64,000 bases of DNA. It comes from Bacillota bacterium (GTDB lineage: Bacteria > Bacillota > Clostridia > Lachnospirales > Lachnospiraceae). Of this stretch, positions 2,926 to 45,253 are shown piece by piece. The notes below the pieces were generated by a model. That model saw only the letters and a list, made by a program, of their open reading frames with translations, was not told the origin of the DNA and made no database searches. Made by a program: the position numbers and the translations under genes. The stretch covers positions 27,550-91,549 of the forward strand of contig JAEYOQ010000008.1 of NCBI GenBank assembly GCA_023411555.1, written 5' to 3'. Within the stretch, counting starts at the first letter, position 1. The number at the start of each line of letters is the position of its first letter.

Positions 2926-3174
2926 TCACCACTTCTTACCAGGGCAGTAGTTATTCGCAACTGCTGCCCTCATCTCCACAAAGCAACCGCACTTCCTGCA
3001 CATACCACTTAATAGCATGTCACATTCTTTACAACGGTCCATTCTTCTCTCATATAACTCTTTCGATGCCTTTATCTCCTCCGGCAGATTACGTATGTAC
3101 TCAAACATATTCTTATACTCTTCATATTCTGCCATATCACGAATCAGGCATCTTTTACATACTCTGGTTTCCAT
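2926..3174 (-). CDS. Small Cys-rich protein (8 Cys, several CxxC pairs; resembles the family I recall as DUF6171), probably metal-binding
   Basis: 82-aa [13 protein letters not shown]...CKECD...CRKCGC...YCPGKKW. Its start overlaps the abfA stop (TGATG), which indicates translational coupling. Confidence 0.7.
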   Translation of the reverse strand: METRVCKRCLIRDMAEYEEYKNMFEYIRNLPEEIKASKELYERRMDRCKECDMLLSGMCRKCGCFVEMRAAVANNYCPGKKW

Positions 3175-4673: not shown

Positions 4674-4724
4674 CTTATTCAACCCTTTCATGTTATTGAT
4701 AGTGAATGCACTTCCTACTACCTG

Positions 4725-6197: not shown

Positions 6198-6219
6198 ACC
6201 CCACTCCTATCTTCAATAC

Positions 6220-7170
6220 CTAAAGCTTAAAAATCGGTTTCCCATCTCCTCCAAATTCAATCTTCATAAGCATTGCATGACGGTTTGGTACATAAAGTGG
6301 ATTTCCATTAATCGCTTTCTCCGTTCTCGCATGATAAACCATAATAGGCTCACCGTTCTCATCTACCGTAAAGGAATTATGCCCAGGACCATAGATTCCC
6401 TTGTCAACACAGCTTTGCAGCACCGGATAACGTTCCTTCTTCCAAGATAAGGGGTCCAATAGATCATCCTCCTCATCTGCGCTGAGCATTCCTATGCAGT
6501 ATGCAATGCCAGTCTCACTTGCCGAATAGGTAAGATAGATCTTACCACTTCTCTTAATCACCGCAGGCCCTTCATTTACCCAATAACCCTGTCGCTCCCA
6601 GTCATAATCCGGTGTTGTCAAAAGCACCTGAACGGTCTTTAATTTTAATGGTGTTTCCATCTCAGCAATATAAAGATTTGATATCTGCGGACCTACTCCA
6701 ACTTTTTCTGCCCATACATAATACCGTTTTCCTTTATTTTCAAAAATGGTAGCATCCAGTGAGAAGCTTTCAAAAGAAAAGGGATCTCCTACGGCTCTCT
6801 GTATTTTCCCCTTCTCTACCCATGTTCCGGTAAGTGGATCTGGATCTTCGCATTCTAAGATGTATGGCCTTATATTCCAGATACTTTCTTTTTCTCCTGC
6901 CGCGAAATACAGATACCATTTGCCGTCCAGATAGTGCAGCTCTGGAGCCCAGATATGCGCACCCATAACACCTTCAGCATGCTTTTCCCAGATCATAACC
7001 TCATCTGTCTCCGGAAGCTCTGCCAGGGTCTTCGCTCTTCTTAATATTATCCCGTCATACTTTGGTATAGAAGCGGTAAAATAGTACCAGCCATCAACAT
7101 GTTTATACACATAGGGATCCGCCCTCTGAATAATCCAAGGTTCGTTATATTTTAGCTGTCTTTCTGCCAT
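6220..7170 (-). CDS. GH43 glycoside hydrolase (intracellular, alpha-L-arabinofuranosidase/beta-xylosidase-like)
   Basis: NEPWIIQRADPYVYKHVDGWYYFTAS..., IWAPELHYLDGKWYLYF..., VNEGPAVIKRSGKIYLTYSA are typical of the five-bladed propeller GH43 fold. AGGAG SD present. Confidence 0.88.
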   Translation of the reverse strand: MAERQLKYNEPWIIQRADPYVYKHVDGWYYFTASIPKYDGIILRRAKTLAELPETDEVMIWEKHAEGVMGAHIWAPELHYLDGKWYLYFAAGEKESIWNIRPYILECEDPDPLTGTWVEKGKIQRAVGDPFSFESFSLDATIFENKGKRYYVWAEKVGVGPQISNLYIAEMETPLKLKTVQVLLTTPDYDWERQGYWVNEGPAVIKRSGKIYLTYSASETGIAYCIGMLSADEEDDLLDPLSWKKERYPVLQSCVDKGIYGPGHNSFTVDENGEPIMVYHARTEKAINGNPLYVPNRHAMLMKIEFGGDGKPIFKL

Positions 7171-9642: not shown

Positions 9643-10950
9643 TTACGGAAACAGTACTTCGTTCAGCTTATCAGGGGGTAAGGGTTTGCATAGCAGATAA
9701 CCTTGACCTCTCTCGCAGGATGTTTCTTTCAGATAATCTAGTTGATCCTGCGTCTCGATTCCTTCTGCTACCACTCTATAATTTAATTCATGAGCCATGG
9801 AGATAATATTATGTGTAATAATCGTCTCCTCATTCCCATGGGGTATTGACTGTATAAAACTCTTATCTATCTTAATGATATCAATTGGCAACTTCTTAAT
9901 GTGAGTTAATGAGGAGTAACCTGTACCAAAATCATCCAATGCAATCCTAATCCCATAGTCCCTGAGTCTGTTCAACCGCTCAATTGCCAAATCGACTTGA
10001 GTAATTATGATTGTCTCAGTAATCTCAAAAATAATCTTTGAGAAATCTACCTTATGTGAGGATATGATTTCTTCGATCCTCTGAAAGTTGCTCGCAGATT
10101 CTAAGGTTTTGCTGGATAGGTTAATGGAAAGCTCAAGGCTATCTAATCCATTCTCCTCCCATTGCATTTTCTGATTCAAGGCTTCATTAATTATCCACCT
10201 CTCCAGACTATAAATCTGTTTTGACTTTTCAGCAATTGGTATAAAGATATCCGGTGATATAAAACCCTTCTTAGGATGTGGCCAGCGCACCAAAGCTTCT
10301 ACTCCGATAATCTCATTGGTTATAAGATTATATTCTGGTTGATAGTAGAGAATAAACTCTTCCTTCTCGATACCATTCTGAAGCTTATTAATCATCTGAA
10401 CCTGTTCGATCATGTCCTTCTGGAGCTCGTCACTATATATATTTATGTCCTTTCCAGACTTTTTAGCAAGATAGCCCGCTGTCTCTGCTTTCCTTATCAG
10501 AGTATCGGCGTCATCTCCATGTTCTGGGAACATCGCAACACCTGCACTCAGCGTGATATAGAAAGCACTATCAGATATGCAAATATTGCACCCACTATCA
10601 ATGACTTCCTCTATCATATCATAAATCTGCTGCTTCGAGCTGATATCGGCACATAAAATCGCAAACTTATCACTATCTACCCTAGTCACATGATTTATGT
10701 TTTTAACCTTGGCAGCAAGATAATCCGCTACACACTTAATAATATTGTCGCACACCTTAAAACCATAGGTTTCATTTAGAAATGTAAAGTTGTTAATATC
10801 TAAATAAACCAGAGCAAATCCATCCGCTCTTGCAAATTGGTTACATGATCTTCGAACAATATAATCGGTTAAAACTCTCTTAAATAAATCGAATTTAGGT
10901 AAGCCTGTAAGTTCATCATAATATGCTGGCTGATAATTTGCTTTTCCCAT
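9643..10950 (-). CDS. c-di-GMP phosphodiesterase: degenerate GGDEF domain plus intact EAL domain, with no sensor domain
   Basis: The GGDEF site reads RVDSDKFA. EAL motifs are intact: EALVRW, FEITET, DDFGTGYSSL, IKIDKSF, EGIET, GQGY. Confidence 0.88.
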   Translation of the reverse strand: MGKANYQPAYYDELTGLPKFDLFKRVLTDYIVRRSCNQFARADGFALVYLDINNFTFLNETYGFKVCDNIIKCVADYLAAKVKNINHVTRVDSDKFAILCADISSKQQIYDMIEEVIDSGCNICISDSAFYITLSAGVAMFPEHGDDADTLIRKAETAGYLAKKSGKDINIYSDELQKDMIEQVQMINKLQNGIEKEEFILYYQPEYNLITNEIIGVEALVRWPHPKKGFISPDIFIPIAEKSKQIYSLERWIINEALNQKMQWEENGLDSLELSINLSSKTLESASNFQRIEEIISSHKVDFSKIIFEITETIIITQVDLAIERLNRLRDYGIRIALDDFGTGYSSLTHIKKLPIDIIKIDKSFIQSIPHGNEETIITHNIISMAHELNYRVVAEGIETQDQLDYLKETSCERGQGYLLCKPLPPDKLNEVLFP

Positions 10951-11040
10951 ACTCTTCTCTCTTGTTCCTCATCCTGCAAAGCTGACGATTATTATGATAT
11001 TAATAGTTGGTCAAATATATAATAATTTATGGGGAAGAAA

Positions 11041-11097
11041 AAAACCATGTCGTATTTGGAAAATTTGATTTAAATTTTCCAAATACGACATGGTTTT
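11041..11097. other. Perfect 26-bp-stem hairpin flanked by an A-run and a T-run (terminator-like), located in a divergent promoter region
   Basis: AAAACCATGTCGTATTTGGAAAATTT-gattt-AAATTTTCCAAATACGACATGGTTTT, followed by TTGCTTTTTTT. Neither flanking gene ends here. Confidence 0.5.
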
Positions 11098-11135
11098 TGC
11101 TTTTTTTAGAGCTTATACTTTAGGTAGATTAAAAA

Positions 11136-11162
11136 TTAAAAACACGTGTTACGTGTTTTTAA
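11136..11162. promoter_or_regulatory. Perfect 12-3-12 palindrome TTAAAAACACGT-gtt-ACGTGTTTTTAA, centred 62 bp upstream of the repeat-protein start codon; candidate operator for the adjacent HTH-TPR regulators
   Basis: Read directly from the sequence. It ends about 21 bp upstream of a possible -10 (CATAAT, 11184-11189), roughly where a -35 would lie. Confidence 0.4.
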
Positions 11163-11210
11163 TTCAAAAATACCACTTAAAACCATAATAAAAAATAGGA
11201 GGATTCAAAA

Positions 11211-11729
11211 ATGAAAAACAATAAAAGATTATTTACTCTCTCTGTATTACTGGTACTTGTGAGCTTAATGTTTATATTCGCTGAAACTCAATTAAAAGAA
11301 GACGTTGGACAAACCTTAGCTAGTGATGTTCCTGTTATCATTACTGCAGAAGACGGAGATGGCGATGCTTATGCTAGTGATATGCCCCATATTGTTACCG
11401 CTTCCACTGAGGATGATCTGACTCTTGCCAGTGATATGCCTCATATCGTTACTGCTTCCATCGAGGACGATCTGACTCTTGCAAGTGACATGCCCCATAT
11501 CGTTACCGCTTCCATCGAGGACGGGCTGACTCTTGCTAGTGATATGCCTCATATCGTTACTGCTTCCATCGAGGACGGACTGACTCTTGCTAGTGATATG
11601 CCTCATATTGTTACCGCTTCCATCGAGGACGGGCTGACTCTTGTTAGTGATATGCCTCATATTGTTACCGCTTCCATCGAGGACGGACTGATTCTTGCTA
11701 GTGATATGCCTCATATTGTTACCGCATAA
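11211..11729 (+). CDS. Secreted tandem-repeat protein: signal peptide plus 1 degenerate and 7 identical copies of the core SDMPHIVTA; candidate poly-pheromone precursor
   Basis: TAGGAGG SD about 8 nt upstream. Signal peptide MKNNKRLFTLSVLLVLVSLMFIFA|ETQ. The rest of the ORF is an 18-aa (54-bp) periodic repeat and ends directly after a core. Confidence 0.85.
   Translation: MKNNKRLFTLSVLLVLVSLMFIFAETQLKEDVGQTLASDVPVIITAEDGDGDAYASDMPHIVTASTEDDLTLASDMPHIVTASIEDDLTLASDMPHIVTASIEDGLTLASDMPHIVTASIEDGLTLASDMPHIVTASIEDGLTLVSDMPHIVTASIEDGLILASDMPHIVTA
11319..11726 (+). repeat. In-frame 54-bp tandem repeat, about 7.6 units (starts 11319, 11373, 11427, 11481, 11535, 11589, 11643, 11697)
   Basis: Manual alignment of the units. 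Differences inside the 27-nt core are all synonymous; amino-acid changes occur only in the spacer. Confidence 0.95.
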
Positions 11730-11731
11730 TA

Positions 11732-12670
11732 TCAAAATATTATTGCATTATCATAATACTTAACAACATGGTCCTCAATGAATTGCTTAACAAAAGAGAG
11801 ATGCATTGCTGAGGCTATATAGTATGCTTCCTTTAAATATTTTAGACATTCTTTCTTATATTCGATAGATAGTGCTCCCTTTTCAATTAACCTCTCTTTG
11901 TTCCATGCAATACCATACAAAAGATTAGGGAGTGCATTACCTATCTTACTTTTTTTACATATTTGAACACCTTCATTAGCTATATTTATTGCCTCTTCAT
12001 GATTACCGATTAGGCCATACCATTTTGATAGATTACAAGTTAAAATAATCTGTAACAGAACTCTTTGCTGCTCTTCAACATAACTCTGCCTTAAGGCATA
12101 GTAAACTTGCTTTACCACCTCTATCGCTTTAAGATATTCTTCTTTTTCAGCATATGCTATAGATATATTAATCAATAGTAATGCTTCGTTATAGCTTAAT
12201 GGCCAATTCGCTAATGATATTGAACCATACCTTGGAATCGTTAAACGTATAGCTTTTTCGTAATTTTCAAGACAATTATCAACACTAATTTTATTCAAGT
12301 AGAAATATACTATTGTCTCTCCCCTAATAATAAATTGCTTATCTAAGATTGAATTTCCAATATTCATTTTTATGTCATTCAACACTTCACTAGCTTTGTA
12401 AAATTCATATTGCCTAGCATAATCCTCAAACAGCTTCATTTTTTCAAGAACCTGCAAATCCGATACTGAAAGCAAGGAATACGCTCTATCTCTGATACGA
12501 CCCATTCGCTCCATCAGGAGCTCATAGACATCTCTACTCGGATTTTGACTACCATTTTCAATCCTTGACAATGTCTCGACAGAACAGATTTCATCACATA
12601 ACTGCTCCTGAGTAATAGACAGAGACTTCCTTGTCATGCGTACTATATCTCCTAGTCGATATCTGCCCAT
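11732..12670 (-). CDS. XRE-family HTH plus TPR-like helical-repeat transcriptional regulator (RRNPP/PlcR-Rgg-like architecture), paralogue 2
   Basis: 312 aa. HTH LSITQEQLCDEICSVETLSRIENG; helical C-terminal region of about 250 aa. GAGGAGGAG SD lies inside the upstream gene, with a 19-nt overlap. Confidence 0.85.
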   Translation of the reverse strand: MGRYRLGDIVRMTRKSLSITQEQLCDEICSVETLSRIENGSQNPSRDVYELLMERMGRIRDRAYSLLSVSDLQVLEKMKLFEDYARQYEFYKASEVLNDIKMNIGNSILDKQFIIRGETIVYFYLNKISVDNCLENYEKAIRLTIPRYGSISLANWPLSYNEALLLINISIAYAEKEEYLKAIEVVKQVYYALRQSYVEEQQRVLLQIILTCNLSKWYGLIGNHEEAINIANEGVQICKKSKIGNALPNLLYGIAWNKERLIEKGALSIEYKKECLKYLKEAYYIASAMHLSFVKQFIEDHVVKYYDNAIIF

Positions 12671-13605
12671 TGATACTCCTCCTCAAGATGCTTCTTAATT
12701 AATTCAGCTTCTGTGTTTTCCTCTAAAAAAAAGTAAACATGATATGCCTGTAGATAGTATTTTAAGCACTCCTTCTTTACTGAATCCCACCTTCCCTGAT
12801 GCTTGAATAATTCTTCTGTCGTATTTGCTTTAACATAATATAGATCGCCCAGATACTCCATCCTTCGGCTTCCCTTAGTTTTCTCTAAGGCTTTATCGCA
12901 CAACGCAAGTGCTTTTGCTATATGGCCCTCTGCAATATAGAGCTTACATGCCATTACTGCAACCTTTGAATAAGTTTGATTGGTATCCTCGGAGAATTCC
13001 TGAAGCCCCAGATACTCAAGAACTTGGTCCAGAATCCCCTTAGCCCGGTCAATTATCCCTGCAATAATCATACGTTGTGTGATTTCAATAATGATACCAA
13101 GCTCGCTGCTACTTAGATAATAATCCATAATCCTATATGTCTTAAAGTCCGGTACGGTATAGGTTATTGCCTCCATCAGCAGGTTGATCGTCTCCTCAAC
13201 AGCACCACCCTGTACTTCATTTAGTAGGGCTCTGCAATAAACTATGAACTGCATATGTACATTTCCCTTGGAAGCAGTCATCTGTTCATAATTTTTTAGG
13301 AGTTCATAAGCCATCGTATAGTTCTTATCTTGGATTAATTTATTAATGTCTATTCTATATTGATATATCATATAATCAAAGTCAGTTAGAATCAATTCAA
13401 ATTGGTTTGGCATTCTTCCTAGACGTTCTAATAATGTCTCTAATAACAAAGAATCTACATCTCTCTCCCCTGCTTCGATACGTGATAAGGTAGCTACCGA
13501 ACACAAACCTTTGCACAATTTACCTTGTGTGATTCCATAGGATTCTCGAAAATATTGAATGGCTGCTCCGATCTTATTTTTTGCCAAATCATTATTTTTA
13601 CCCAT
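12652..13605 (-). CDS. XRE-family HTH plus TPR-like helical-repeat transcriptional regulator (RRNPP/PlcR-Rgg-like architecture), paralogue 1
   Basis: 317 aa. HTH YGITQGKLCKGLCSVATLSRIEAG. Shares the C-terminal KKECLKY motif with paralogue 2. Confidence 0.85.
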   Translation of the reverse strand: MGKNNDLAKNKIGAAIQYFRESYGITQGKLCKGLCSVATLSRIEAGERDVDSLLLETLLERLGRMPNQFELILTDFDYMIYQYRIDINKLIQDKNYTMAYELLKNYEQMTASKGNVHMQFIVYCRALLNEVQGGAVEETINLLMEAITYTVPDFKTYRIMDYYLSSSELGIIIEITQRMIIAGIIDRAKGILDQVLEYLGLQEFSEDTNQTYSKVAVMACKLYIAEGHIAKALALCDKALEKTKGSRRMEYLGDLYYVKANTTEELFKHQGRWDSVKKECLKYYLQAYHVYFFLEENTEAELIKKHLEEEYQWADID

Positions 13606-13679
13606 TTTACCATTTTCCCACCTATTTTATTATTTTTTAAGTAGTTTAATCGACAAAAACATTAATGCTTCTCAAATAC

Positions 13680-13708
13680 AGATTACCATATCATTTTTTC
13701 CAGTTCAA
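13680..13708 (-). promoter_or_regulatory. Candidate sigma-A promoter of the regulator pair (TTGAAC-N17-TAATCT with a TG extended -10)
   Basis: Minus strand reads TTGAAC tggaaaaaatgatatgg TAATCT, about 70 nt upstream of start codon 13605. Confidence 0.4.
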
Positions 13709-14027
13709 TTATTATTAGTTTAAAAAATGAGAATATCTGTACTTCATAGCTGCAATCTACTAATTTCAATCTATATCTCATGTATCGTGGTGTTGATCAA
13801 CCACACTTGCGTAAACATGAAGCAAGTTGAATCACTTACCAAGTTTTATCCTATCATACTTCCAATCTTATACACTGGTTGAATCACCTTATACAGAATC
13901 TCTCTGCAAATAAATATAGAGTGATCCAAACGCATTCATGCGTTTGTCCGCAGAAGTGAGTCATCCCAAAATGAACTTCGTTCACTTGCCCAGAGGGCTT
14001 TTATTTCATAGGACGAACTTATCTATG

Positions 14028-14067
14028 AAATAAAATATGCTCCTCACGAATTATCATGGGGAGCATA
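14028..14067 (-). terminator. Intrinsic terminator after the P-loop ATPase gene
   Basis: Minus strand reads UAUGCUCC-C-CAUGA-uaau-UCGUG-A-GGAGCAUA followed by UUUUAUUU. Confidence 0.6.
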
Positions 14068-14119
14068 GTAATTATTAGCGTTTATTATATATTACTTTTC
14101 TGTACCATCTATGTATGAT

Positions 14120-15214
14120 CTACCTAACAGCCTTAACAAGGAAACGGTTTCCACCGCATAATACTAACTTCTGCCCCTTCGGAGCCTTAGTCAGCCAGTT
14201 AATATCCTCTGGACTTAGGCTAAAGAGAGGCTTTAGAAGCTCGACCTTATCCATAGGATGACCGAAGATCTCAAAGTAACCGGAGATATTCCGAAAGCTC
14301 AAACGCTTCGTAAGGAAGGTCGCTGTATCTTCAATTGCTGCAGTAATCACGAAGCCCTGGGATTTTGATACCTTATACATCATGGCCATATATTTGTCAT
14401 AGCGCAGGAAAAGGGGGTCCGCATCATCAATCAGAAGTCTTGCACCGGTAATTGGAGCCTTTCCGTTGAGTCTCGTCCATACATCCTCTATCGCCATCAG
14501 ACTGTACTTATCTGTATCTTCTTTGGCTACATTAGAAACATCATAGATTACTAATCGATGACTGCCAATATTAATCTGTTCTTCTCCTTCGGCAATCTGA
14601 TTTAGTTCTGTGATCGCAGCCGCTAACTCTTTTAATTCATCTAGGAAGGTATCCTTAAGTAATATGTTATCCGTTGTAACCGGTTCAAGATTTAACTCAG
14701 CGGCTACTGCTGCCAGACCACTCTTAATATCCTCCAGCTTCCTTGCAATCTTCTTGCTTTCATAAGCATCTATCATACTATTAAAGGCTAGAGCAAACTT
14801 GTTCCAATCCAGATCTCCGCAATCCAGACACTGCTTCAACATAACCTGTTCTATCATGTATTTCTGAAGATTAGTCAGTTTCGGAAGCTTAGTTCCCACC
14901 AAAAGCCTTGCCAAGCCAAATTTGATTTTACTTAAGAACACGATATCCTGCTCACTTATCTCACAAGCATCCTGAATAATCAGGGGATTTAAAGGTTCCT
15001 GCCTCAGATCAATTACTAAACCGTCATACTTTTCGATGAGCTCATTAAACTCACCTTTCTTACTGATGACAAAGACTGTTCCATCCGTATTCTCAAGCAC
15101 ATGTTCTATTTCATTTTTTAATGCACTGGTTTTTCCAGTACCGGCAGGCCCAAAGTAGAATCCGCTGCCCCCATTAATCATATCTCTTCGCTGTTGATAA
15201 ATCTGAACTGCCAT
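14120..15214 (-). CDS. Orphan P-loop NTPase resembling the C-terminal ATPase module of VirB4/TrsE-type conjugation ATPases (AAA-like/DUF87-type)
   Basis: Walker A GPAGTGKTS. Putative Walker B RLLIDDAD. C-terminal ...LSPEDINWLTKAPKGQKLVLCGGNRFLVKAV recalls VirB4 C-termini. AAGGAGGGG SD present. Confidence 0.7.
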   Translation of the reverse strand: MAVQIYQQRRDMINGGSGFYFGPAGTGKTSALKNEIEHVLENTDGTVFVISKKGEFNELIEKYDGLVIDLRQEPLNPLIIQDACEISEQDIVFLSKIKFGLARLLVGTKLPKLTNLQKYMIEQVMLKQCLDCGDLDWNKFALAFNSMIDAYESKKIARKLEDIKSGLAAVAAELNLEPVTTDNILLKDTFLDELKELAAAITELNQIAEGEEQINIGSHRLVIYDVSNVAKEDTDKYSLMAIEDVWTRLNGKAPITGARLLIDDADPLFLRYDKYMAMMYKVSKSQGFVITAAIEDTATFLTKRLSFRNISGYFEIFGHPMDKVELLKPLFSLSPEDINWLTKAPKGQKLVLCGGNRFLVKAVR

Positions 15215-16430: not shown

Positions 16431-18812
16431 TTATTCCTTCAAAACGGACAGCTCGGAATTAAGAGTTACTTTGTTACCGGCTTCCATATTCAATACAATG
16501 CTCCTATCCTTATACTTCACCTTAATTCTTCCATCTGCTCTAGGTAGTAAGGACGCCTTTATTAATCTATCCTCCTGCCAGTATAGGTCTACTTCGATAT
16601 TCCCTCTCGCCATCAGACCGGTCACATGCCCCTGCTTCCATTCCTCCGGAAGAGCAGGCAGTAAGGATAGAAAGCCCTCATGAGATTGCAGCAGCATCTC
16701 AGCAATTCCGGCTGTAACGCCGAAATTACCATCAATCTGGAAGGGAGGATGAGCATCAAAGAGATTATCATAGGTTCCTCCCTGTCTGCTACGGAAAGTA
16801 TCACCTACTGGCTTCAGCTGACGCTTAATCAGCTTCAAGGCATGATCACCATCTCGTAGGCGGGCCCATTGATTAACCTTCCAGCCCAGACTCCATCCAG
16901 TACCTTCATCTCCACGGTTCGTCAATGTTACCCTGCAAGCCTCCATTAGCTTAGGTGTCTTATCATAGGTGAATTCTCCGGCGGGATGAAGACCATAAAG
17001 AAGTGATACATGGCGATGCTTAGGGTCATGCTCCTCATATTCCCTATCCCATTCGAGTAACTGACCCTGACTTCCAATTTCAGGCGGAAGAAGTCTCGAG
17101 AGAGCTTCCTTCAGATCCTCCTTCAGCCCGTCCTCGTCATCAACAAGCGCCATTGCAGTAATACAATTCGTAAACAATTCCCTTAGAATACTCATCGTCA
17201 TCGTTGTTGTAGCAGAAAGAGCACATTTTTCCCCATGAATCAGATACTCATTCTCCGGGGAGGTAGACGGACAAGCCCATAGATATCCCTGGTCATTCTC
17301 TGTCAGGATATCAAGTCCAAACAAACATGCCTCCTTAAGAATTGGTAACGCTTCTCTTCTTAGATATTCCCGATCCTGTGTGAATTCATATTGCTCATAT
17401 AGATGTCTGCATAACCAGGCTGCTCCCAATGGCCAAAAGCCCCAGGCTCCAGCACCTCTTTCTCCCCGAGGACCAACCGGAGTAGTGATTCTCCATAGGT
17501 CAACATTATGATGAGCCGTAAAACCTCTGGCATCATAATAGCATTTTGCGGTCTTTCTACCACTGATACTGAGATCCTTTACCAGCTGCAACAAGGGCTC
17601 ATTCATTTCCGCAAGATTGCAGGTAAAGGCAGGCCAATAATTCATCTCTGTATTTATATTAGTGGTGAAATTCGAGCTCCAGGGTGCACGTAGCTTATCA
17701 TTCCAGATTCCCTGTAGATTGGCCGGCTGAGTCCCCGGTCTGGAGCTTGAGATTAACAGATATCTACCGTATTGAAACAGTAACGGAATTATCCCTTTCT
17801 CCTGACCATCTTGTTCAAATTCCCTAAGCCGCAGGTCTGTAGGTACATCATGCATGCTGGCTCCTTCAAGGGAAAAGCTTACTCTGTCATAGAATGCTCG
17901 ATAATCTGATATATGTCTGTTCTTAAGCTCCTCATAGGGTCTTGCCGCCAGCTTCTTCCACAACTCTTTACAACAAATATCCGTCTCCTTGCCCTCCAGA
18001 TATGGATGCTTGTCAAAGCCTTGGAAGCTTGTCTTAACAGTAAAATATAGCGTTACTTCCGACGCACCTAACAGCTTTAGACAATCCTCCTCCCTAGTGA
18101 TACACCCTTCTGTATGCTTAAGTCCTGCGATAGCATAAAACCGAATTCCCCGTTCCTCGTCCTTTTCACTATATACAATCGGATTATCGCAATCTACATA
18201 ATTCGGTACCGCCTGTCCCGGACACTCTCCTTGAAGCACCAGGGATGTCTCTCCAACCGTCACCTTACTTCTTAATTCACTCTTAAACCTTAGCGTAAGA
18301 TTAATCTGCTTTTCCTTAGAGGCTGTAATTCTAAGCACAAATCCATCATCCGGCGCAGATACAAAGGCCTCTCGCATATACTCCACACCAGAACTGGAAT
18401 AAGCGGTTGTACAGATTGCATTGGTTATATCTAGCCTTCTTACATAATTTTCGACTATAGGGGAATGGTCCATAATTAACTCAATATCACCAAGTGGCAT
18501 ATAAGATTGCCCCCAGGTCCCAAGAACCTTATCCTCGATTAGCTCCTGTGCCTCTTTCATTCTACCGGATAGGCAGAGTTCTTTTGCCTCCTTGATATAA
18601 TCCCCTGCGCTCTCATCTACCGTATCTCTTGGGTAACCGGACCATAAGGTATCCTCGTTCAGGCAGATTCGCTCCTTCATAGTTCCCCCGTAGACCATTG
18701 CTCCTATCCTGCCATTGCCCAGGGGTAAGGCCTGTGTCCAAGACTCGGCCGGTTGTTTATACCATAACAAAAAGTCTTTTGATCGATTATTCATGATTGT
18801 GTTATTCCTCAT
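16431..18812 (-). CDS. Alpha-L-fucosidase, GH95
   Basis: LWYKQPAESWTQALPLGNGRIGAMVYGG...ERICLNEDTLWSG is the typical GH95 N-terminus, and the 793-aa size fits. Confidence 0.9.
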   Translation of the reverse strand: MRNNTIMNNRSKDFLLWYKQPAESWTQALPLGNGRIGAMVYGGTMKERICLNEDTLWSGYPRDTVDESAGDYIKEAKELCLSGRMKEAQELIEDKVLGTWGQSYMPLGDIELIMDHSPIVENYVRRLDITNAICTTAYSSSGVEYMREAFVSAPDDGFVLRITASKEKQINLTLRFKSELRSKVTVGETSLVLQGECPGQAVPNYVDCDNPIVYSEKDEERGIRFYAIAGLKHTEGCITREEDCLKLLGASEVTLYFTVKTSFQGFDKHPYLEGKETDICCKELWKKLAARPYEELKNRHISDYRAFYDRVSFSLEGASMHDVPTDLRLREFEQDGQEKGIIPLLFQYGRYLLISSSRPGTQPANLQGIWNDKLRAPWSSNFTTNINTEMNYWPAFTCNLAEMNEPLLQLVKDLSISGRKTAKCYYDARGFTAHHNVDLWRITTPVGPRGERGAGAWGFWPLGAAWLCRHLYEQYEFTQDREYLRREALPILKEACLFGLDILTENDQGYLWACPSTSPENEYLIHGEKCALSATTTMTMSILRELFTNCITAMALVDDEDGLKEDLKEALSRLLPPEIGSQGQLLEWDREYEEHDPKHRHVSLLYGLHPAGEFTYDKTPKLMEACRVTLTNRGDEGTGWSLGWKVNQWARLRDGDHALKLIKRQLKPVGDTFRSRQGGTYDNLFDAHPPFQIDGNFGVTAGIAEMLLQSHEGFLSLLPALPEEWKQGHVTGLMARGNIEVDLYWQEDRLIKASLLPRADGRIKVKYKDRSIVLNMEAGNKVTLNSELSVLKE

Positions 18813-38729: not shown

Positions 38730-39722
38730 TTATTCCTTGATAATCCCACGGAGCTTTAATTCACCCGCTCTATGACATGCCACGTAATGTCCCTTCTCCA
38801 TTTCTATAAAATTAACATCCTCTGTTTTACATTTGTCGATGCAGTATTTACATCTTGTGTGGAAAAAGCATCCCGAGGGCGGATTTGCCGGATTTGGAAT
38901 CTCTCCCTGCAATGGAATTCTCTCATTTTCAAGGGTAGGATCTGCAATTGGTACAGCAGAGATCAGTGCTTCCGTATAGGGGTGCAAAGGATTCTTGAAT
39001 AATTCTCCGCTTGTGGTATACTCTACCATCTTCCCTAGATACATAACACCCACTTTATCCGAGATATGTTCAACTACCGATAGATCATGACTAATGAACA
39101 GATAGGTCAGCTTCAACTCCTTCTGCAAGTCCATCAATAGGTTTACCACCTGAGCCTGAACGGATACGTCAAGGGCAGATACCGCTTCATCGCATACGAT
39201 CAGACGAGGATACAGTACAAGAGCTCTGGCAATACCAATTCTTTGACGCTGTCCACCAGAAAAGGCATGGGGATAGCGCTTGAGATAACTGGGATTTAAA
39301 CCAACCTTAACCGCTATCTCCTTTACACGAGCTTCAATCTCCTTCTTGGATAGTTTAAAATTCGCTCTTAAGGGTTCTGAAATAATGTCAAATACCGTCA
39401 TACGCGGGTCCAAAGAAGAAAAAGGATCCTGAAAAATCATCTGTATCTCTTTTCGAATGGTTTTCATGGAAGCCTTATCGATCTTCTGTAAGTTATACTC
39501 CGTTCCATCCTCAGCAAGATATAACACCTCACCTGCAGTCGCATCAACTGCTTTTACGATGCAACGACCAAGTGTGGTTTTGCCACAGCCAGACTCACCA
39601 ACAATACCGACAGTCTCACCCTCATTTACCTCAAAGCTCACATTATTCACAGCTCTTACATCAACTTTTTTTGAAGAGAAGGTCTTGCTCATTTCTTTTA
39701 CTTTTAATATCGTTTTCGACAT
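38730..39722 (-). CDS. Opp/Dpp-type ABC transporter ATP-binding protein (OppF-like)
   Basis: Walker A GESGCGKTT, signature FSGGQRQR, and a C-terminal oligopeptide-type extension containing Cys residues. Confidence 0.92.
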   Translation of the reverse strand: MSKTILKVKEMSKTFSSKKVDVRAVNNVSFEVNEGETVGIVGESGCGKTTLGRCIVKAVDATAGEVLYLAEDGTEYNLQKIDKASMKTIRKEIQMIFQDPFSSLDPRMTVFDIISEPLRANFKLSKKEIEARVKEIAVKVGLNPSYLKRYPHAFSGGQRQRIGIARALVLYPRLIVCDEAVSALDVSVQAQVVNLLMDLQKELKLTYLFISHDLSVVEHISDKVGVMYLGKMVEYTTSGELFKNPLHPYTEALISAVPIADPTLENERIPLQGEIPNPANPPSGCFFHTRCKYCIDKCKTEDVNFIEMEKGHYVACHRAGELKLRGIIKE

Positions 39723-39734
39723 AACAATCCCTCC

Positions 39735-40742
39735 TTACTGTTCTTTCTTCTTAGCAGCACTCATATCTGCATAGCAGGCAACAAAATGGCCTTCATTCAC
39801 TTCCACCAAGGTTGGTTCACTACAATTACATTTACCCTTCTCACGATACTCGCAACGATCATAAAAGCCACATTGATTAGCCAGATTCATTGCAAGGGGT
39901 ACCGTTCCTTCTATGGAATAGAGACGATCATGTCCTCCACCAATCTTATGGACAGAGCCCATCAATCCAATCGTATACGGATGAAGAGGATTTTTGAATA
40001 TATCCTTAACCGGAGCTATCTCTACAATCTTTCCAAGATACATAACCGCTACACGATCACATACCTTCGCCACTGTCCCAAGATCATGGGTAATGTAGAG
40101 AATTGCCATCTTAAATTCCTTCTGCAACTCCTTCATCAGTTCAAGAATCTGCGCTTGAATCGTTACATCCAGGGCTGTAGTAGGCTCATCCGCAATGAGA
40201 AGCTTCGGATTACATACCAGCGCCATTGCAATCAAAGCTCTTTGCAGCATACCTCCGGAGAATTCATGAGGGTATTGGTTATACCTCTTCTCCGGATTAG
40301 AAATCCCCACTTTACGCATTGCTTCTATGGAAATCTCCTTTGCTTTCTTTTTATCCTTTGTCATATGGAGACGTACAAACTCGGAAATCTGATGTCCTAT
40401 GGTGAATAGGGGTGAAAATGAGCTCATGGGCTCCTGGAATATCATCGATATATTCTTGCCACGGATACTTCTTATTTCAGCACCACCAAATTTCATATCC
40501 AACAGATTTAGCTCACGACCTTCATTCTGGAAGGTGATCTTACCGGTTGTAACACATTTCCGATCATTAATTCCCATGATCGCCTTGCTGGTCAAGCTCT
40601 TACCACATCCCGATTCTCCTACTAATCCAAGGGTTTCATTCTCCTTGATTGAAAAGCTGATTCCTCGCAGTGGAGTCAGTATGCCTTCGTCCAGTTTGAT
40701 TTTTATATTAAGGTCCTCAACTACAACTACATTCTTTTCCAT
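39735..40742 (-). CDS. Opp/Dpp-type ABC transporter ATP-binding protein (OppD-like)
   Basis: Walker A GESGCGKSL, signature FSGGMLQR. Confidence 0.92.
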   Translation of the reverse strand: MEKNVVVVEDLNIKIKLDEGILTPLRGISFSIKENETLGLVGESGCGKSLTSKAIMGINDRKCVTTGKITFQNEGRELNLLDMKFGGAEIRSIRGKNISMIFQEPMSSFSPLFTIGHQISEFVRLHMTKDKKKAKEISIEAMRKVGISNPEKRYNQYPHEFSGGMLQRALIAMALVCNPKLLIADEPTTALDVTIQAQILELMKELQKEFKMAILYITHDLGTVAKVCDRVAVMYLGKIVEIAPVKDIFKNPLHPYTIGLMGSVHKIGGGHDRLYSIEGTVPLAMNLANQCGFYDRCEYREKGKCNCSEPTLVEVNEGHFVACYADMSAAKKKEQ

Positions 40743-40754
40743 TTAATACCTCGC

Positions 40755-41948
40755 TTATTTATAAGGGTCTGCAGCATCGCGTAAGCCATCACCCAGGAAG
40801 TTAAATGCCAACACAGCTAATCCCACGAAGAGGACTGGTATTAGTTTCCACGGACAATTGGCGATATTGCTGATACTCTGGCACTCTTGCAATAGCACGC
40901 CCCAACTGGTAGCAGGTGCACGCATGCCCAATCCCAGGAAGCTCATTGATGTTTCTCCCAATATCATACCGGGAATACCCAAAGTAAGATTTACAATCAG
41001 GTAGCTCATGAAGCCAGGGACCAAATGCTTTGCGATAATTTTCGCGTCGGATACACCAGCCAATCTTGCTGCCATAACATAATCTTCCTTCTTCAGGGAA
41101 AGGAATTTACTTCGAACCGTTCGTGCAAGTCCCGGCCAGCTGAGTAAAGACATGATTACGGTAATAAATATGTATACCTTTACTACGGAGATACCAGGTG
41201 GAATAGCAGCAGAAAGCGCCATCCATAATGGTAAAGTAGGAAAGGAAGAGATAACCTCAATTATTCTCTGTATTACAGTATCAATAATACCACCATAATA
41301 ACCGGAGATTCCACCGATGACAATCGCCAATAGGAAGGATAAAAAGGTTCCAATCAAAGGTACAGTCAATGATACCTGACTACCAATCAGTATTCTGGAG
41401 AACAAATCACGCCCAAGCTGATCTGCTCCAAATAGCATAACATTTACCTTGTCCTTTCCAGGTGGTAGGTCTGAATTATCAATTCCAAATAAATGCAAAT
41501 CACTTTTTATAAAGCCCAATAATTTATAGGAAGAACCTTTTACAAAAAATTCAATCTTGTAAGGTTTATCTGTTTTCTCCAGGAATATTTTATTTAAAAA
41601 TTTATCGTAAGAGACCTCAAGGTCGTATACAAACGGACCAATAAATTCACCCTCGTGTACAAAATGTACCTTGGTCGGCGGAGAATTGGAATAGGTTGCC
41701 GAGAAATCCTCCAAGCCTTGTGGAGCGATAAAGTTGGCAAAGATTGCACAGGTATACAGTAATGCTAAGATGATAAAGCTGATCATTGCAAGCTTATGTT
41801 TTAGTAGCTTTCTCCCCATTAGCTGCCACTGCGAGGATGTATAATACTTTTCTTGCTTTGCGCGCTTCTTTTCCAGCTTCTTTAATTCCTTCTCGCTTAA
41901 ATTAGTACTTTCAGGAGCAGAATTGGTTGTTATATTCTCTTGACTCAT
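40755..41948 (-). CDS. Opp/Dpp-type ABC transporter permease (OppC-like) with a charged N-terminal extension
   Basis: BPD-transport permease features; 1-nt overlap with the upstream permease gene (TAATG). Confidence 0.9.
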   Translation of the reverse strand: MSQENITTNSAPESTNLSEKELKKLEKKRAKQEKYYTSSQWQLMGRKLLKHKLAMISFIILALLYTCAIFANFIAPQGLEDFSATYSNSPPTKVHFVHEGEFIGPFVYDLEVSYDKFLNKIFLEKTDKPYKIEFFVKGSSYKLLGFIKSDLHLFGIDNSDLPPGKDKVNVMLFGADQLGRDLFSRILIGSQVSLTVPLIGTFLSFLLAIVIGGISGYYGGIIDTVIQRIIEVISSFPTLPLWMALSAAIPPGISVVKVYIFITVIMSLLSWPGLARTVRSKFLSLKKEDYVMAARLAGVSDAKIIAKHLVPGFMSYLIVNLTLGIPGMILGETSMSFLGLGMRAPATSWGVLLQECQSISNIANCPWKLIPVLFVGLAVLAFNFLGDGLRDAADPYK

Positions 41949-42940
41949 TATTTACTCTCCTCTAGTAATTTAATCCTCGGGTCCAGAACAGCAAGCAGTA
42001 AATCAGAAATCAGCGTACCGATAACTACCAGTGTTGCTGAAATCAGCAGGATACCTCCGGAAAGATATACATCCTGAGATTGTAATGCTTTTAATAATAT
42101 CGGGCCCTGAGTCGGAAGCATCAATACGATTGCTGTAATGGTTGAACCATTGAAGATACCGGAGATCATTCCTCCAAGCCCACTTACAATCGGATTAATA
42201 ACTGCACGCATTTCATACTTATAGGTTATCGTTTTTTCACTTACACCCTTTGCTCTTGTGCAGAGTACATACGGCTTTTCCTGCTCATCCAACATCTGAG
42301 CACGAATACTTCGAATTAGTCCACAGGCACCTGACATACTGATAACAATCGTGGGTATAATTAATCGTTTCAAGAACTCCAGGAAGGTTGCCCAAGAAGT
42401 GATACCTCCTTCCGGAAACAGTCCCATTAATGGTTTACCCGTCCATTTATAAGATAAATACATCAATAGAATTGCCAATAGAAAGTGCGGAACAGCCATA
42501 CCTACAAAACCGATCAAAGTAAAGAAGTAATCACCGATCGAATATTGATGCTTTGCAGAATAAATTGCAATCGGTATAGCGATCATATAGGTTACAACTA
42601 ATGTAATCAGCGATATCATCATGGTTGCTCCAAGCGTCTCGCCGATCTTTGCCAATACCGTTTGGTTATAATAAAAGGAAGTACCCCAGTCTCCTGTCAC
42701 TATGCCACCCAGCCAATCGACATACTGTACCATGAACGGACGATCCACCTTATACATAGCGCGCAGGTTTGCGATATCTGCCTCTGTTACAGTCTCGCCT
42801 TGTGCTATCATATCGGTTACCAAGCTATCCACAAAATCACCGGGTGGAAGCTGAATTACAAAAAATACTACGAAGGTAATCATCAATAATGTAAAAAGGG
42901 CCAGCGTGAGCCTCTTTGTAATATATTTCAATTTATCCAT
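41948..42940 (-). CDS. Opp/Dpp-type ABC transporter permease (OppB-like)
   Basis: 330-aa multi-pass membrane protein with an OppB-like N-terminus (YITKRLTLALFTLLMITFVVFFVIQLPPGD). Confidence 0.9.
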   Translation of the reverse strand: MDKLKYITKRLTLALFTLLMITFVVFFVIQLPPGDFVDSLVTDMIAQGETVTEADIANLRAMYKVDRPFMVQYVDWLGGIVTGDWGTSFYYNQTVLAKIGETLGATMMISLITLVVTYMIAIPIAIYSAKHQYSIGDYFFTLIGFVGMAVPHFLLAILLMYLSYKWTGKPLMGLFPEGGITSWATFLEFLKRLIIPTIVISMSGACGLIRSIRAQMLDEQEKPYVLCTRAKGVSEKTITYKYEMRAVINPIVSGLGGMISGIFNGSTITAIVLMLPTQGPILLKALQSQDVYLSGGILLISATLVVIGTLISDLLLAVLDPRIKLLEESK

Positions 42941-43165
42941 AACTTATCACCATAGAACCCTTCTCAACTTCATTTGCCTTGAATATAGATGTGGGCTTTT
43001 GCAAAGGTGCTAAAATTCTGCCAATTTACAAAAGCCCTCCATCCTATTACACTACCTAAATATACTTACTCCTTATGCTCGTACCAAGTATCCTTCTCAC
43101 ACTTCCCAGACGTAGGTACAAGCTTGCATACTACGTCAAAACTTTTAATAAGCCTTTACTAAGTC

Positions 43166-45253
43166 TTATTTAGCTAAATATAACTGCTCCGGACGCATCA
43201 TGCTTGCAAAGCGGTACTCATCTGCCCATACAACGTTAGACGGGAAATTCTTAACCTTGTTATTTACAAAGAAGTTAATCGGCAGTGGTGCCAGATATCC
43301 GATAATCCAAATATTTTCTTTATGTAAATCATAGATCTTCTTCACATTTTCTGCAACAACTGCTTCTCTGTTATCTCCTGATGCATTCTTAATTGCATCA
43401 TAAGCGTTGATTAACTCAAGTACAGCTCCGGTCGGTTCAACTCCACCATTTGCTGTAGTCTTGCCATCCTCATACCACTTACCGTATGCACCATACCAGC
43501 AGCTGAAGTTACGCATCGGAACAACAATATCAGGGCGGATAGCAGGAGAGGTCATGCTAACACCTTCAAACTTCGCTTCAATATTATTAACCAATATTGA
43601 TTTTGCGATTTCTGCATCTACCTTGTCAGATACCTTAACACCGATTGCTTTGTAAGCTGTCTGCAGTAAGGTTATGTAATCGCCTTCCTTACTGATATCA
43701 CTGGTAGAGATAACAATTTCAACATCCTTATTGGTGCCCTTCATCTTACGATAGGTACCCGGTGCTTTGTCCCAAGGCTCTGTTATCTCATCCAAAATAC
43801 TGTTAGCCTTATCAACATTATATTCAGTCCACTTATTAGCCCATTCCGCATCGTAAAAAGCTGTACCCTCTGAAGGTGCTGCTTGTGCAGGCTTTGATTG
43901 GCCACTCATCAAGGTGGCATTCATTAGGTTTCTGTCAACACTGATAGAAAGCGCTTCTCTAAAGCGAATATCCTGGAACAGTGCTCTCTTATCCGAATCC
44001 TGTACTGTCTGGCAAAGAGCCAAAGCAGGTCCACTCTGCCATTCCGGTCTGAACCAAGGAACTATAGTATGAGTCGCCTGAGTTGCTGTTGCTACAGTAG
44101 CATAATCGCCAAACTCAACGGTTGAGATATCAATTTCACCTGCTGTCTGCTTAAGAACTACCTGATCTGCATCGTTAATAATGATAAACTTTATGCTGTC
44201 AAGATAAGGCAATTGACGACCTTCACTATCTGTCTTCCAGAAATAAGGATTACGAACTAATTCATAGGTCTCACCAACGGTATTCCAGTTATCTTTCACA
44301 GCGATAAAGCTTCTAATCTGAGGAACAATTGCATAATCCCAGTTATAATAGCCGATATCCTTACCCATGGTGCCGTAATCTTCCCAAGCTCTGCCAAAAT
44401 CCTTGTTTGCATTAGCAATTGCCTGCTCTTCGGTAATCAGAGGGAAGGTAGCATCATCCGCTACTCCGTCTTTACGAGCAACATAATTGATATAGAAATG
44501 CTTCGGTAAGAACATCCACTTATTATCTACTGCTACTGCCTCAGGGAAGTTCGGCTTCGGAGCAGCGAAGGTTACTGTAAATGTATAATCATCAACCTTA
44601 GCAAATTCAGCCCAGTAATTCTTGCCGTCTTTTGTAACCTGGTAGCAATTATAAGGCTTAGAGGTATATGCAGGATAGTAGCCCGCTTCCTCTACACCTA
44701 CTGCAGTACGGTCTGCGTTCAAAGCCGGAGTTGACATGTGATCATAATAGAATATTACGTCATCTGCTGTAAAAGGATGTCCATCAGACCACTTCATACC
44801 TTCACGAAGCTCGATTGTCCATACAGAACCATCTTCATTCGAATAAAAATCCTTACATACATTCGCCTCTACTTCACCGGAGCCATCCAATTTAAAACGG
44901 AACATACTCTGTTCCGTATAGGGACCCCATCCCCAACGGCCACCGTCATTAGTAGTAGCAGTAATGCTACCGCCATATTCTCCCAGTGACTGAACATCCT
45001 TTTCCACCATTACATCTTCAGCTACTGGCAGACGCTCTTCCAATGCTGGCAGAGTACCCGCAGCAACCTGCTCAGCAAGCATCGGTGCCTCTTTAGCCAA
45101 ATCGGTTGGTTTACTATCTTCACCCGCAGTATCATTTGTTGTGGCTGGAGTTGGATTCTGTGTCACTCCTCCATCGTTTGAAGGTTTGCTGCATGCTGCC
45201 AAGGAACCAAATCCAAGAACCACTGCCAGCATAAGTGCTAATACTCGTTTCAT
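43166..45253 (-). CDS. Family-5 (Opp/Dpp-type) substrate-binding lipoprotein, unusually large (695 aa)
   Basis: Lipobox GFGSLAACSKP, then a Thr/Pro-rich linker. AAGGAGGAG SD present. Confidence 0.88.
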   Translation of the reverse strand: MKRVLALMLAVVLGFGSLAACSKPSNDGGVTQNPTPATTNDTAGEDSKPTDLAKEAPMLAEQVAAGTLPALEERLPVAEDVMVEKDVQSLGEYGGSITATTNDGGRWGWGPYTEQSMFRFKLDGSGEVEANVCKDFYSNEDGSVWTIELREGMKWSDGHPFTADDVIFYYDHMSTPALNADRTAVGVEEAGYYPAYTSKPYNCYQVTKDGKNYWAEFAKVDDYTFTVTFAAPKPNFPEAVAVDNKWMFLPKHFYINYVARKDGVADDATFPLITEEQAIANANKDFGRAWEDYGTMGKDIGYYNWDYAIVPQIRSFIAVKDNWNTVGETYELVRNPYFWKTDSEGRQLPYLDSIKFIIINDADQVVLKQTAGEIDISTVEFGDYATVATATQATHTIVPWFRPEWQSGPALALCQTVQDSDKRALFQDIRFREALSISVDRNLMNATLMSGQSKPAQAAPSEGTAFYDAEWANKWTEYNVDKANSILDEITEPWDKAPGTYRKMKGTNKDVEIVISTSDISKEGDYITLLQTAYKAIGVKVSDKVDAEIAKSILVNNIEAKFEGVSMTSPAIRPDIVVPMRNFSCWYGAYGKWYEDGKTTANGGVEPTGAVLELINAYDAIKNASGDNREAVVAENVKKIYDLHKENIWIIGYLAPLPINFFVNNKVKNFPSNVVWADEYRFASMMRPEQLYLAK

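Follow-up and report, generated by a model that had tools for sequence, protein, structure and literature searches.

The window analyzed here, a stretch of 64,000 nucleotides from a Bacillota bacterium (family Lachnospiraceae; contig JAEYOQ010000008.1, positions 27,550 to 91,549), contains a putative peptide quorum-sensing locus. A gene for a repetitive precursor polypeptide of 172 residues (11211..11729, + strand) lies tail-to-tail with the genes of two paralogous regulators, R1 (312 residues; 11732..12670, − strand) and R2 (317 residues; 12652..13605, − strand), both composed of a helix-turn-helix (HTH) domain and a tetratricopeptide repeat (TPR)-like region. On its other side, the precursor gene is separated by a large inverted repeat (I1, 11040..11098) from a divergent gene encoding a GGDEF–EAL protein (9643..10950, − strand). 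An initial annotation of this DNA had confined a candidate pheromone module to positions 11136–13605; the precursor and the regulators assigned to it are retained, but the functional unit appears from its sequence organization to be larger, adding the bidirectional operator/promoter region (11019–11119) and the GGDEF–EAL gene.

Precursor gene and paired regulators

The precursor gene is preceded by a ribosome-binding site (AGGAGG, 11197..11202, + strand) located 8 nt 5′ of the ATG and kept in all loci. The encoded polypeptide starts with a basic segment (MKNNKR), followed by a 17-residue hydrophobic segment (top Kyte–Doolittle value over a 15-residue window, 2.92) and the sequence IFA|ETQ; because of these N-terminal features, residues 1–24 (11211–11282, + strand) are predicted to be a Sec-type signal peptide. 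After a short linker, one degenerate ‘fossil’ core, SDVPVIITA (residues 38–46; 11322–11348, + strand), precedes seven identical cores, SDMPHIVTA, alternating with acidic 9-residue spacers (STEDDLTLA, SIEDDLTLA, two copies of SIEDGLTLA, SIEDGLTLV, and SIEDGLILA) over residues 56–172 (11376–11726, + strand), with no residue between the last core and the stop codon. Re-reading of the sequence and Tandem Repeats Finder (period, 54 nt; 6.6 copies; 91% matches; 11372–11725) both agree with the initial description of this 172-residue open reading frame (ORF), with its one degenerate and seven identical cores. The mature part contains 29 Asp/Glu residues versus 1 Lys/Arg, and the precursor sequence is free of a lipobox, a sorting motif, and any further hydrophobic segment. 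Because the copies differ synonymously and orthologous arrays occur in many independent assemblies, the repeat is judged to be neither a product of chance nor an assembly artefact. A 139-residue antisense ORF (11316..11735, − strand), which could mislead gene callers, was rejected as a by-product of the repeat, all core variation being at third positions of the + frame.

The genes for R2 and R1 overlap by 19 nt and are predicted to be translationally coupled. The two proteins are 26% identical over their full length, have the motif KKECLKY in common, and carry nearly the same recognition helix (..CSVxTLSRIE..), consistent with their earlier description as coupled paralogues lying tail-to-tail with the precursor. 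In Pfam searches, HTH_3 was matched above the cut-off by both R1 (7.4e-8) and R2 (6.7e-6), and TPR_12 was matched by R1, while RNPP_C on the R2 of the window scored 24.4 bits against a cut-off of 26.5, about 2 bits short; family-wide, HTH_3 was found in 60 and RNPP_C in 26 of 69 members. NCBIfam gave no informative match for the precursor, R1, or R2. With single sequences as queries, the PDB gave only a weak match to PlcR for R1 (0.0018) and no useful one for R2; a profile of R1 only matched PlcR (2qfc) over positions 5–254 with E = 3.7e-7, and a mixed profile of R2 and R1 matched PlcR over the full length with E = 5.4e-11, the runners-up (Rgg, ComR, and MutR) being matched through the HTH region only.

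The AlphaFold2 models of R1 and R2 showed predicted local distance difference test values of 89 and 88.4 and predicted template modeling scores of 0.85 and 0.86, respectively. In Foldseek searches against the PDB, the top match of both models was the PlcR complex with PapR7 and DNA (3u3w; E = 1.4e-7 for R1 and 3e-7 for R2). For both models, ranks 1–15 were occupied by PlcR, ComR, and Rgg2, followed by a TPR-repeat protein at rank 16 or 22, with PrgX, Rap, and NprR placed lower. The sequence identity of R1 and R2 to PlcR is only 17–20%. Since the profile and predicted-fold searches both put PlcR first, R1 and R2 are assigned, from sequence and model, to the RRNPP receptors of the PlcR type, in line with the initial proposal of RRNPP-like HTH–TPR regulators.

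Related loci, core copy number, and co-variation

A scan of one genome per species yielded 70 loci (related loci and contigs are cited as L001 and so on); sets of 53 loci with a precursor ORF, 52 loci for promoter analysis, and 38 loci for co-variation analysis were used. Relatives of R1 (225 at 58–100% identity) were found in Herbinix, Mobilitalea, Anaerocolumna, and metagenome-assembled genomes of Bacillota. All 70 loci, those of a distant, Roseburia-type group of 27–35% identity included, have R2 directly upstream of R1 and overlapping it to the same extent; the paralogous coupled pair noted before is therefore no casual tandem but an invariable linkage. In 53 Lachnospiraceae loci, a signal-peptide ORF preceded by a ribosome-binding site is convergent with R1 at a gap of ~0–30 nt, so that the co-occurrence with an HTH–TPR pair, which the initial annotation had put forward for a survey, was found.

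The precursor orthologues in these 53 loci carry from 1 to 15 core copies. Most of them are propeptides of 40–61 residues with a single C-terminal core of the pattern [SNCH]D-x-P-x-[IV]-D-x-x, ending for example in ..CSDLPFVD, ..QSDFPEID, ..NSDLPAIDW, ..CHDMPPIDTF, or ..NNDLPPIDTY, and, in Herbinix hemicellulosilytica, in ..CSNLPPADSVAFPL. Multi-copy forms have two cores (L013), about three (Mobilitalea sibirica), four or five (others), eight (the window), nine (L007), 10 (L075, 227 residues), and 15 (L010). In L010, L014, and L015, the arrays are spacer-less and their units abut; therefore, the mature peptide should comprise at most nine residues. The consensus core is SD-x-P-x-I-x-[ST]-A, with variation mostly after the proline (His, Phe, Glu, Pro, Ala, Ser, Thr, or Trp), and the variants in relatives include SDMPFIVTA, SDMPF in L007, SDLPF in L020, and a C-terminal SDLPFVD. 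The known PapR heptapeptides are ADLPFEF, SDMPFEF (PapR-II), and SDLPFEH (PapR-IV) (PMC2441798); SDMP is common to the window core and SDMPFEF, whereas the C-terminal half differs (HIVTA or IVTA versus FEF or FEH). Because the N-terminal half of the core matches the PapR heptapeptides and a series leads from single to multiple copies, we interpret the multi-copy genes as intragenic amplifications of the C-terminal core of a PapR-like single-copy propeptide.

The fossil core of the window, SDVPVIITA, is also the minor N-terminal core in L008, and the first core of L007, SDAPTIISA, is the core of L011. The L007 precursor (4945–5535 of that locus) combines two SDMPHIVTC cores, five SDMPFIVTC cores, and a final SDMPFIVTA, and looks, by its sequence, like an intermediate between two pherotypes in a single gene. 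Recurring fossil cores and the mixed H- and F-type cores of L007 fit the duplication–divergence model published for duplicated RRNPPA propeptides. Such propeptides, with several identical or pseudo-repeated pheromones each, are known from the Rap–Phr systems of phages phi3T and phi105 and from NprX, PapR, and AimP variants; up to six identical copies have been reported by Felipe-Ruiz et al. in the AimR, NprR, PlcR, and Rap subfamilies (PMC9765709), and, as the same group showed, tandemly duplicated Phr propeptides are processed extracellularly into several active pheromones (PMC11343458). With these precedents, the initial premise of novelty, that an eight-unit precursor looks more like yeast α-factor or neuropeptide precursors than like any known bacterial quorum-sensing gene, does not hold: multi-copy propeptides as such are not new, and there is no support for a gene of a categorically new kind. 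The differences from the published cases are in extent and context, namely a copy number of eight in the window and of 9, 10, or 15 in relatives, a regular core/spacer period of 18 residues (or of nine when spacer-less), a length of 172–227 residues as compared with the usual 50–120 residues (PMC11343458) and the RRNPP_detector propeptide limit of 10–100 residues (PMC10075063), and, relative to duplicated Rap–Phr propeptides, receptors that are DNA-binding and PlcR-like. Similarly, the likeness to yeast α-factor or neuropeptide polyproteins drawn earlier is an analogy only; these also consist of a signal peptide and tandem identical units with acidic spacers, but the precursor has no Kex2-type dibasic sites, its junctions are A|S, and its origin would be a bacterial PapR-like propeptide.

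A search of 5.8 billion proteins found no homologue of the precursor, and its exact sequence is not on record. In related loci, short-read contigs break off within the repeat or immediately ahead of it, or have Ns in its place (L001, L003, L004–L006, L012, L016, L045, and L049; L002 at 6039–6184), and because of such breakage this database miss is not evidence of uniqueness. Multi-copy pheromone genes are thus systematically missed or under-represented, because contigs break in the repeat, the protein database holds no homologue, and detection tools stop at 100 residues.

Among the seven identical cores of the window, five nucleotide columns vary, all at third codon positions, giving pairwise 44 synonymous and no non-synonymous differences, as compared with 16 synonymous and 38 non-synonymous differences among the spacers. 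Other arrays behave alike (L075, 59/0 in cores versus 55/112 in spacers; L030 and L015, 18/0 and 12/0 in cores, respectively); as pairwise counts among repeats these values are not independent and are descriptive only, although uniform in direction. They indicate that the core peptide sequence is the constrained unit, under purifying selection, and the spacers are not. It is scarcely credible, then, that the polypeptide serves as a structural or adhesive protein, secreted, acidic, and repetitive, that has no part in signalling and only incidentally lies beside regulators. Its very acidic and repetitive mature part (with the Asp/Glu excess given above) and the absence of homologues from the protein database would suit such a protein, but the latter is explained by the broken contigs, the single-copy orthologues of 40–60 residues cannot be structural, selection acts on the nine-residue core rather than on the spacers, the chain terminates exactly at a core, and the gene strictly co-occurs with R1 across the 53 loci at the convergent gap of 0–30 nt.

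Mantel correlations between core distance and TPR-domain distance were calculated for the co-variation subset, a survey also suggested in the initial annotation. Core distance correlated with R1 TPR distance at r = 0.51–0.57, and at a partial r = 0.31–0.38 when R2 was controlled (p = 5e-4); for R2 with R1 controlled, the partial r was 0.08–0.11 (p = 0.07–0.12). At the level of distance matrices, co-variation with the other regulator controlled was thus seen for R1 and not for R2, which points to R1 as the candidate cognate receptor of the core peptide.

In L065 and L071 (also L057), belonging to the distant group, the gene across the palindrome is sometimes radical-SAM-like, with CxxxCxxC motifs, instead of encoding an EAL protein, and the regulator pair in these loci may control a cluster of the ribosomally synthesized and post-translationally modified peptide (RiPP) type. 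This occasional neighbour in Roseburia-type relatives, together with the fact that multi-core precursors are typical of some RiPP classes, could be taken to mean that the cores of the window are modified into an antibiotic or other secreted product, with the regulators merely controlling its synthesis. We regard this as very unlikely for the following reasons. No modifying enzyme, protease-transporter, or immunity gene is found in the conserved four-gene unit or within ~5 kb of it in the window and close relatives, and, in place of a RiPP leader, the N-terminus is a Sec-type signal; the cores have their homologues at the C-terminal ends of ordinary propeptides of 40–60 residues and resemble unmodified PapR. 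Searches with Pfam and NCBIfam and inspection of the neighbour genes likewise found no modifying enzyme, exporter, or sortase signal adjoining the precursor and regulators, as the initial annotation had remarked.

Divergent promoter region and GGDEF–EAL gene

I1 is a perfect inverted repeat with 27-nt arms (11040–11066 and 11072–11098), each containing a 19-bp core element, TTTTCCAAATACGACATGG (11045–11063, − strand, and 11075–11093, + strand), of which these are the sole two copies in 64 kb. The element is itself an imperfect, asymmetric dyad (CCAAAT-ACG-ACATGG). The half-site shows zero to two mismatches in ~45 loci, though their regulators are just 55–88% identical, and the distant group of 27–35% identity has a symmetric half-site variant, CCATGTCAAAACTGGAAAA. 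The element hardly varies even among loci with proteins of ~57% identity. On the precursor side, a distance of 20 nt separates the proximal arm from a −10 box (TATACT, 11114..11119, + strand), and no −35 hexamer is present; TATAAT or a near match (mean, 5.6/6) is found at exactly this distance in 51/52 loci. On the far side, a −10-like hexamer of the GGDEF–EAL promoter (TATTAT, 11019..11024, − strand) is likewise 20 nt from the far arm, and the hexamer at this offset fits TAnnAT in 50/52 loci (mean match to TATAAT, 4.7/6). The arm-to-arm distance ranges from 18 to 49 nt across loci, while that from arm to −10 is fixed at 20 nt on both sides. Transcription is predicted to start near 11126 (+ strand) and 11012 (− strand). 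Both divergent promoters are devoid of a −35 box, the position of which is taken by the 19-bp element. Because of this sequence invariance and fixed 20-nt geometry, I1 appears to be the operator serving the precursor and GGDEF–EAL promoters, in a layout known from promoters that depend on an activator, for example PlcR or ComR. The idea of I1 as a single symmetric dimer site was dropped, since the arm spacing varies whereas each arm keeps its distance to its own −10 box.

The R2–R1 operon has a promoter of the ordinary sigma-A type (13680..13708, − strand; −35 TTGAAC at 13703–13708, 17-nt spacer, −10 TAATCT at 13680–13685), which is recognizable upstream of R2 in related loci as a conserved block, AATTGAAC-N17-(TG)nTAATCT, and from which the I1 element is absent. 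The PlcR box, TATGnAnnnnTnCATA, had no match near 10950–11211 or 13606–14119; its five matches in the window (one exact and four with one mismatch) equal the chance expectation.

As RNA, I1 would form a hairpin of −38/−36 kcal/mol, with U-runs on both strands. No terminator is present between the precursor and R1, so that I1 may additionally stop R2–R1 transcripts reading antisense through the precursor, ahead of the co-directional EAL gene. In the opposite direction, only 2 nt separate the stop codons of the precursor and R1 genes (11727–11734), and the + strand from 11729 to 13600 showed nothing resembling a terminator; when the precursor gene is induced, its transcription could therefore be expected to continue antisense into R1, a candidate feedback route. 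A second inverted repeat, I2 (11134..11164, + strand), with 14-nt arms (AATTAAAAACACGT-N3-ACGTGTTTTTAATT), is situated at the start of the 5′ untranslated region of the precursor transcript, with a hairpin of −13.2 kcal/mol (z, −5.6). I2 occurs only in the clade whose multi-copy precursors have SDxPxIxxA cores, where symmetric ACACGT to ACATGT variants are seen, and is a candidate for a 5′ hairpin or a second operator. Rfam assigned no real family to I1 or I2, where generic miRNA-model hairpin matches fell far below threshold.

The direction of control deserves separate consideration. In Streptococcus pyogenes, the two paralogous regulators Rgg2 and Rgg3 act on common operators and respond to common peptides, whose gene is auto-induced; Rgg structures (4yv6 and 6w1a) are among the Foldseek matches of the R1 and R2 models. 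Rgg2 and Rgg3, however, are neither adjacent nor translationally coupled, and their peptides, the SHPs, are short, of a leaderless type, and exported by PptAB, unlike the precursor described here; no multi-copy precursors were found in the Rgg/ComR subfamilies (PMC9765709). An opposite logic, in which R1 and/or R2 would be DNA-bound repressors or anti-activators released by the peptide, as for PrgX, AimR, and Rgg3, or an antagonistic pair such as Rgg2/Rgg3, is improbable, but has some points in its favor. Several RRNPP members are inhibited by their own peptide (PMC11343458), two paralogues with nearly the same recognition helix are always present, I2 covers the transcription start and 5′ untranslated region, a usual repressor position, and precursor transcripts running unterminated into the convergent R1 gene could bring in antisense control of the kind known from prgQ/prgX. 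Against this, neither promoter has a −35 box and the element stands at the binding position of class-II activators (PlcR and ComR, for instance), the nearest relative in both structure and sequence is the activator PlcR, and I2 occurs in one clade only, whereas R2 is universal. Activation thus remains the preferred reading of the divergent region.

The divergent gene encodes a 435-residue protein with GGDEF and EAL domains (Pfam, 2.7e-25 and 6.1e-76, respectively). Because the GGDEF motif position is degenerate (DSDKF) and the EAL-side motifs (EAL, EITE, DDFGTG, KIDKSF, and EGIE) are intact, the protein is most likely a cyclic di-GMP (c-di-GMP) phosphodiesterase. An orthologue (52–86% identity, some EAL-only) lies past the far arm in 36/52 loci, starting 71–224 nt after the arm, and the gene is, judged by this arrangement, a probable regulated output of the module. 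A c-di-GMP link has a precedent in the Bacillus cereus PlcR regulon, which includes a PAS–GGDEF–EAL gene (PMC2464732).

A single, non-palindromic copy of the 19-bp element, exactly 20 nt before a −10-like hexamer, was also found in each of two metagenomic contigs: in L080 (655–673), upstream of a gene for a large secreted repeat protein of at least 462 residues, and in L089 (3857–3875), upstream of one for a lipoprotein of at least 437 residues; on this basis, both genes are candidate regulon members outside the module. Further exact 19-bp matches in the metagenome scan (L087, L094, L096, and L100) are in GC-richer, coding-like DNA and were set aside as probable chance. In L092 (~1179–1300, − strand), a transposase-like ORF, and not a precursor, lies downstream of the palindrome and −10 box, which suggests insertion of an insertion sequence element into the module.

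Proposed signalling circuit and genomic setting

Altogether, comparison with related loci strongly supports the functional reading as a Sec-exported multi-copy pheromone precursor beside cytoplasmic RRNPP-type HTH–TPR receptors, as far as sequence can tell, and we consider it likely that the locus as a whole is a PlcR/PapR-type (RRNPP) peptide quorum-sensing module with a multi-copy precursor and a divergent EAL output. In the proposed circuit, the R2–R1 operon is read from its ordinary promoter, and the precursor would be exported by Sec with removal of the leader. By analogy with PapR7 and with the spacer-less relatives, the chain would be cut at the A|S junctions bounding each nine-residue unit, yielding up to seven peptides starting with SD (SDMPHIVTA or a derived 7–8-mer) and one SDVPVIITA variant per chain. 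A peptide re-imported, for example, through the Opp-type permease of the window may then bind in the TPR groove of R1, possibly in an R1–R2 hetero-oligomer, and the complex is assumed to occupy the 19-bp element, in the −35 position, on both promoter faces. Activation of the precursor gene would constitute positive feedback, and that of the EAL gene would lower c-di-GMP at high cell density. The multi-copy precursor would raise the peptide yield per translation and supply raw material for pherotype divergence.

The features common to RRNPP(A) systems, an N-terminal XRE HTH, a C-terminal TPR-like domain, and an adjacent gene for a secreted propeptide, are all present, the 172-residue propeptide being outside the usual size. 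For processing outside the cell, import by Opp, and receptor binding, the Opp-type operon of the window and the core–R1 co-variation are circumstantial indications. The Rap–Phr type, with a receptor lacking an HTH and acting on Spo0F or ComA, does not correspond, since R1 and R2 carry an HTH and Rap is a distant fold match. The closest parallel is PlcR–PapR, the best profile and fold match, whose receptor of ~300 residues has the same domain order, and whose propeptide, likewise of the Sec type and encoded by an adjacent gene, is active through its C-terminal part, starting with [AS]D-[LM]-P (PMC2441798). The few variable core positions suggest a similar pattern of pherotype diversification. 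An operator upstream of the −10 box, divergent promoters included, and a GGDEF–EAL protein in the regulon are further features in common (PMC2464732). The two systems differ in that PlcR is single whereas two paralogous receptors are obligatorily linked here; PapR has one copy in 48 residues as against eight in 172; the operator is the 19-bp TTTTCCAAATACGACATGG and not the PlcR box; and the host is an anaerobic member of Lachnospiraceae rather than of the Bacillus cereus group.

Several observations weigh against this interpretation. The canonical PlcR box is absent from the module, and a different 19-bp element is conserved instead; the precursor gene is convergent with the receptor genes, with 2 nt between the stops, whereas papR is co-directional and follows its single receptor. 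The variable arm spacing of I1, its A/T flanks, and its hairpin of −38 kcal/mol would also fit a plain bidirectional terminator. In 16/52 loci there is no GGDEF–EAL neighbour, so the output is not universal. The co-variation with R1 could come from its closer physical linkage to the precursor and not from binding, and the signal peptide is a prediction from sequence features. More generally, the peptide, its binding, the transcript ends, and the promoter response are all deduced from sequence.

A more specific version of the circuit, which we put forward only tentatively, is that a PlcR-like receptor made of R2 and R1 as an obligate heteromer, a pair conserved from Herbinix to Roseburia, reads the asymmetric 19-bp element, with the polyprotein of 8–15 cores acting as a stoichiometric amplifier that couples cell density to c-di-GMP degradation, and with antisense feedback into R1. 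If true, this would represent a new circuit architecture within RRNPP signalling, and the series from 1 to 15 copies would document how pherotypes arise in nature when a core is amplified within its gene. With its fossil and intermediate pherotypes, the series allows testing of the duplication–divergence model and of copy number against signalling threshold. In Lachnospiraceae, a family dominant in guts and biomass digesters, quorum sensing by peptides has hardly been explored, and the locus predicts a compact link from RRNPP signalling through a c-di-GMP phosphodiesterase to the choice between motile and sessile life. No paper on a system of this kind came up in a full-text literature search for RRNPP together with Lachnospiraceae, and the RRNPP_detector supplementary text that was searched contains no entry for Herbinix, Anaerocolumna, Mobilitalea, Lachnospiraceae, or Roseburia. 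What appears to be new is the Lachnospiraceae subfamily itself, with its invariably paired receptors, 8–15 copies at a regular period, bidirectional operator, and dedicated EAL output.

Elsewhere in the window, a complete Opp/Dpp-type ABC permease operon (38730..45253, − strand) encodes a 695-residue family-5 binding protein (SBP_bac_5, 3.2e-46), two permeases (OppC_N and BPD_transp_1), and two ATPases (ABC_tran) with an oligo_HPY domain, as assigned by Pfam. It is a candidate import route for the peptide, not specific to the module; as another point against the proposed circuit, SBP_bac_5 transporters of a hemicellulose degrader may take up sugars instead of peptides. The immediate neighbours of the module are the GGDEF–EAL gene, a small lipoprotein-like ORF, a VirB4-like ATPase fragment, Lgt, and a glycoside hydrolase of family GH95. 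The ATPase fragment, a 364-residue P-loop protein (14120–15214, − strand), matches a VirB4-like conjugation ATPase model (CD1110 family) at positions 409–527 of 752 only, with 50 bits against a cut-off of 325, and may be a remnant or a diverged ATPase; its gene stands beside R2 also in the closest relatives, L001 and L002, though not in L004. Genes for hemicellulose-degrading enzymes (an arabinofuranosidase, two GH43, and a GH95) form a cluster that flanks the module on both sides (3174–7170 and 16431–18812), and the host is consistent with a Herbinix-like or related Lachnospiraceae bacterium degrading plant biomass.

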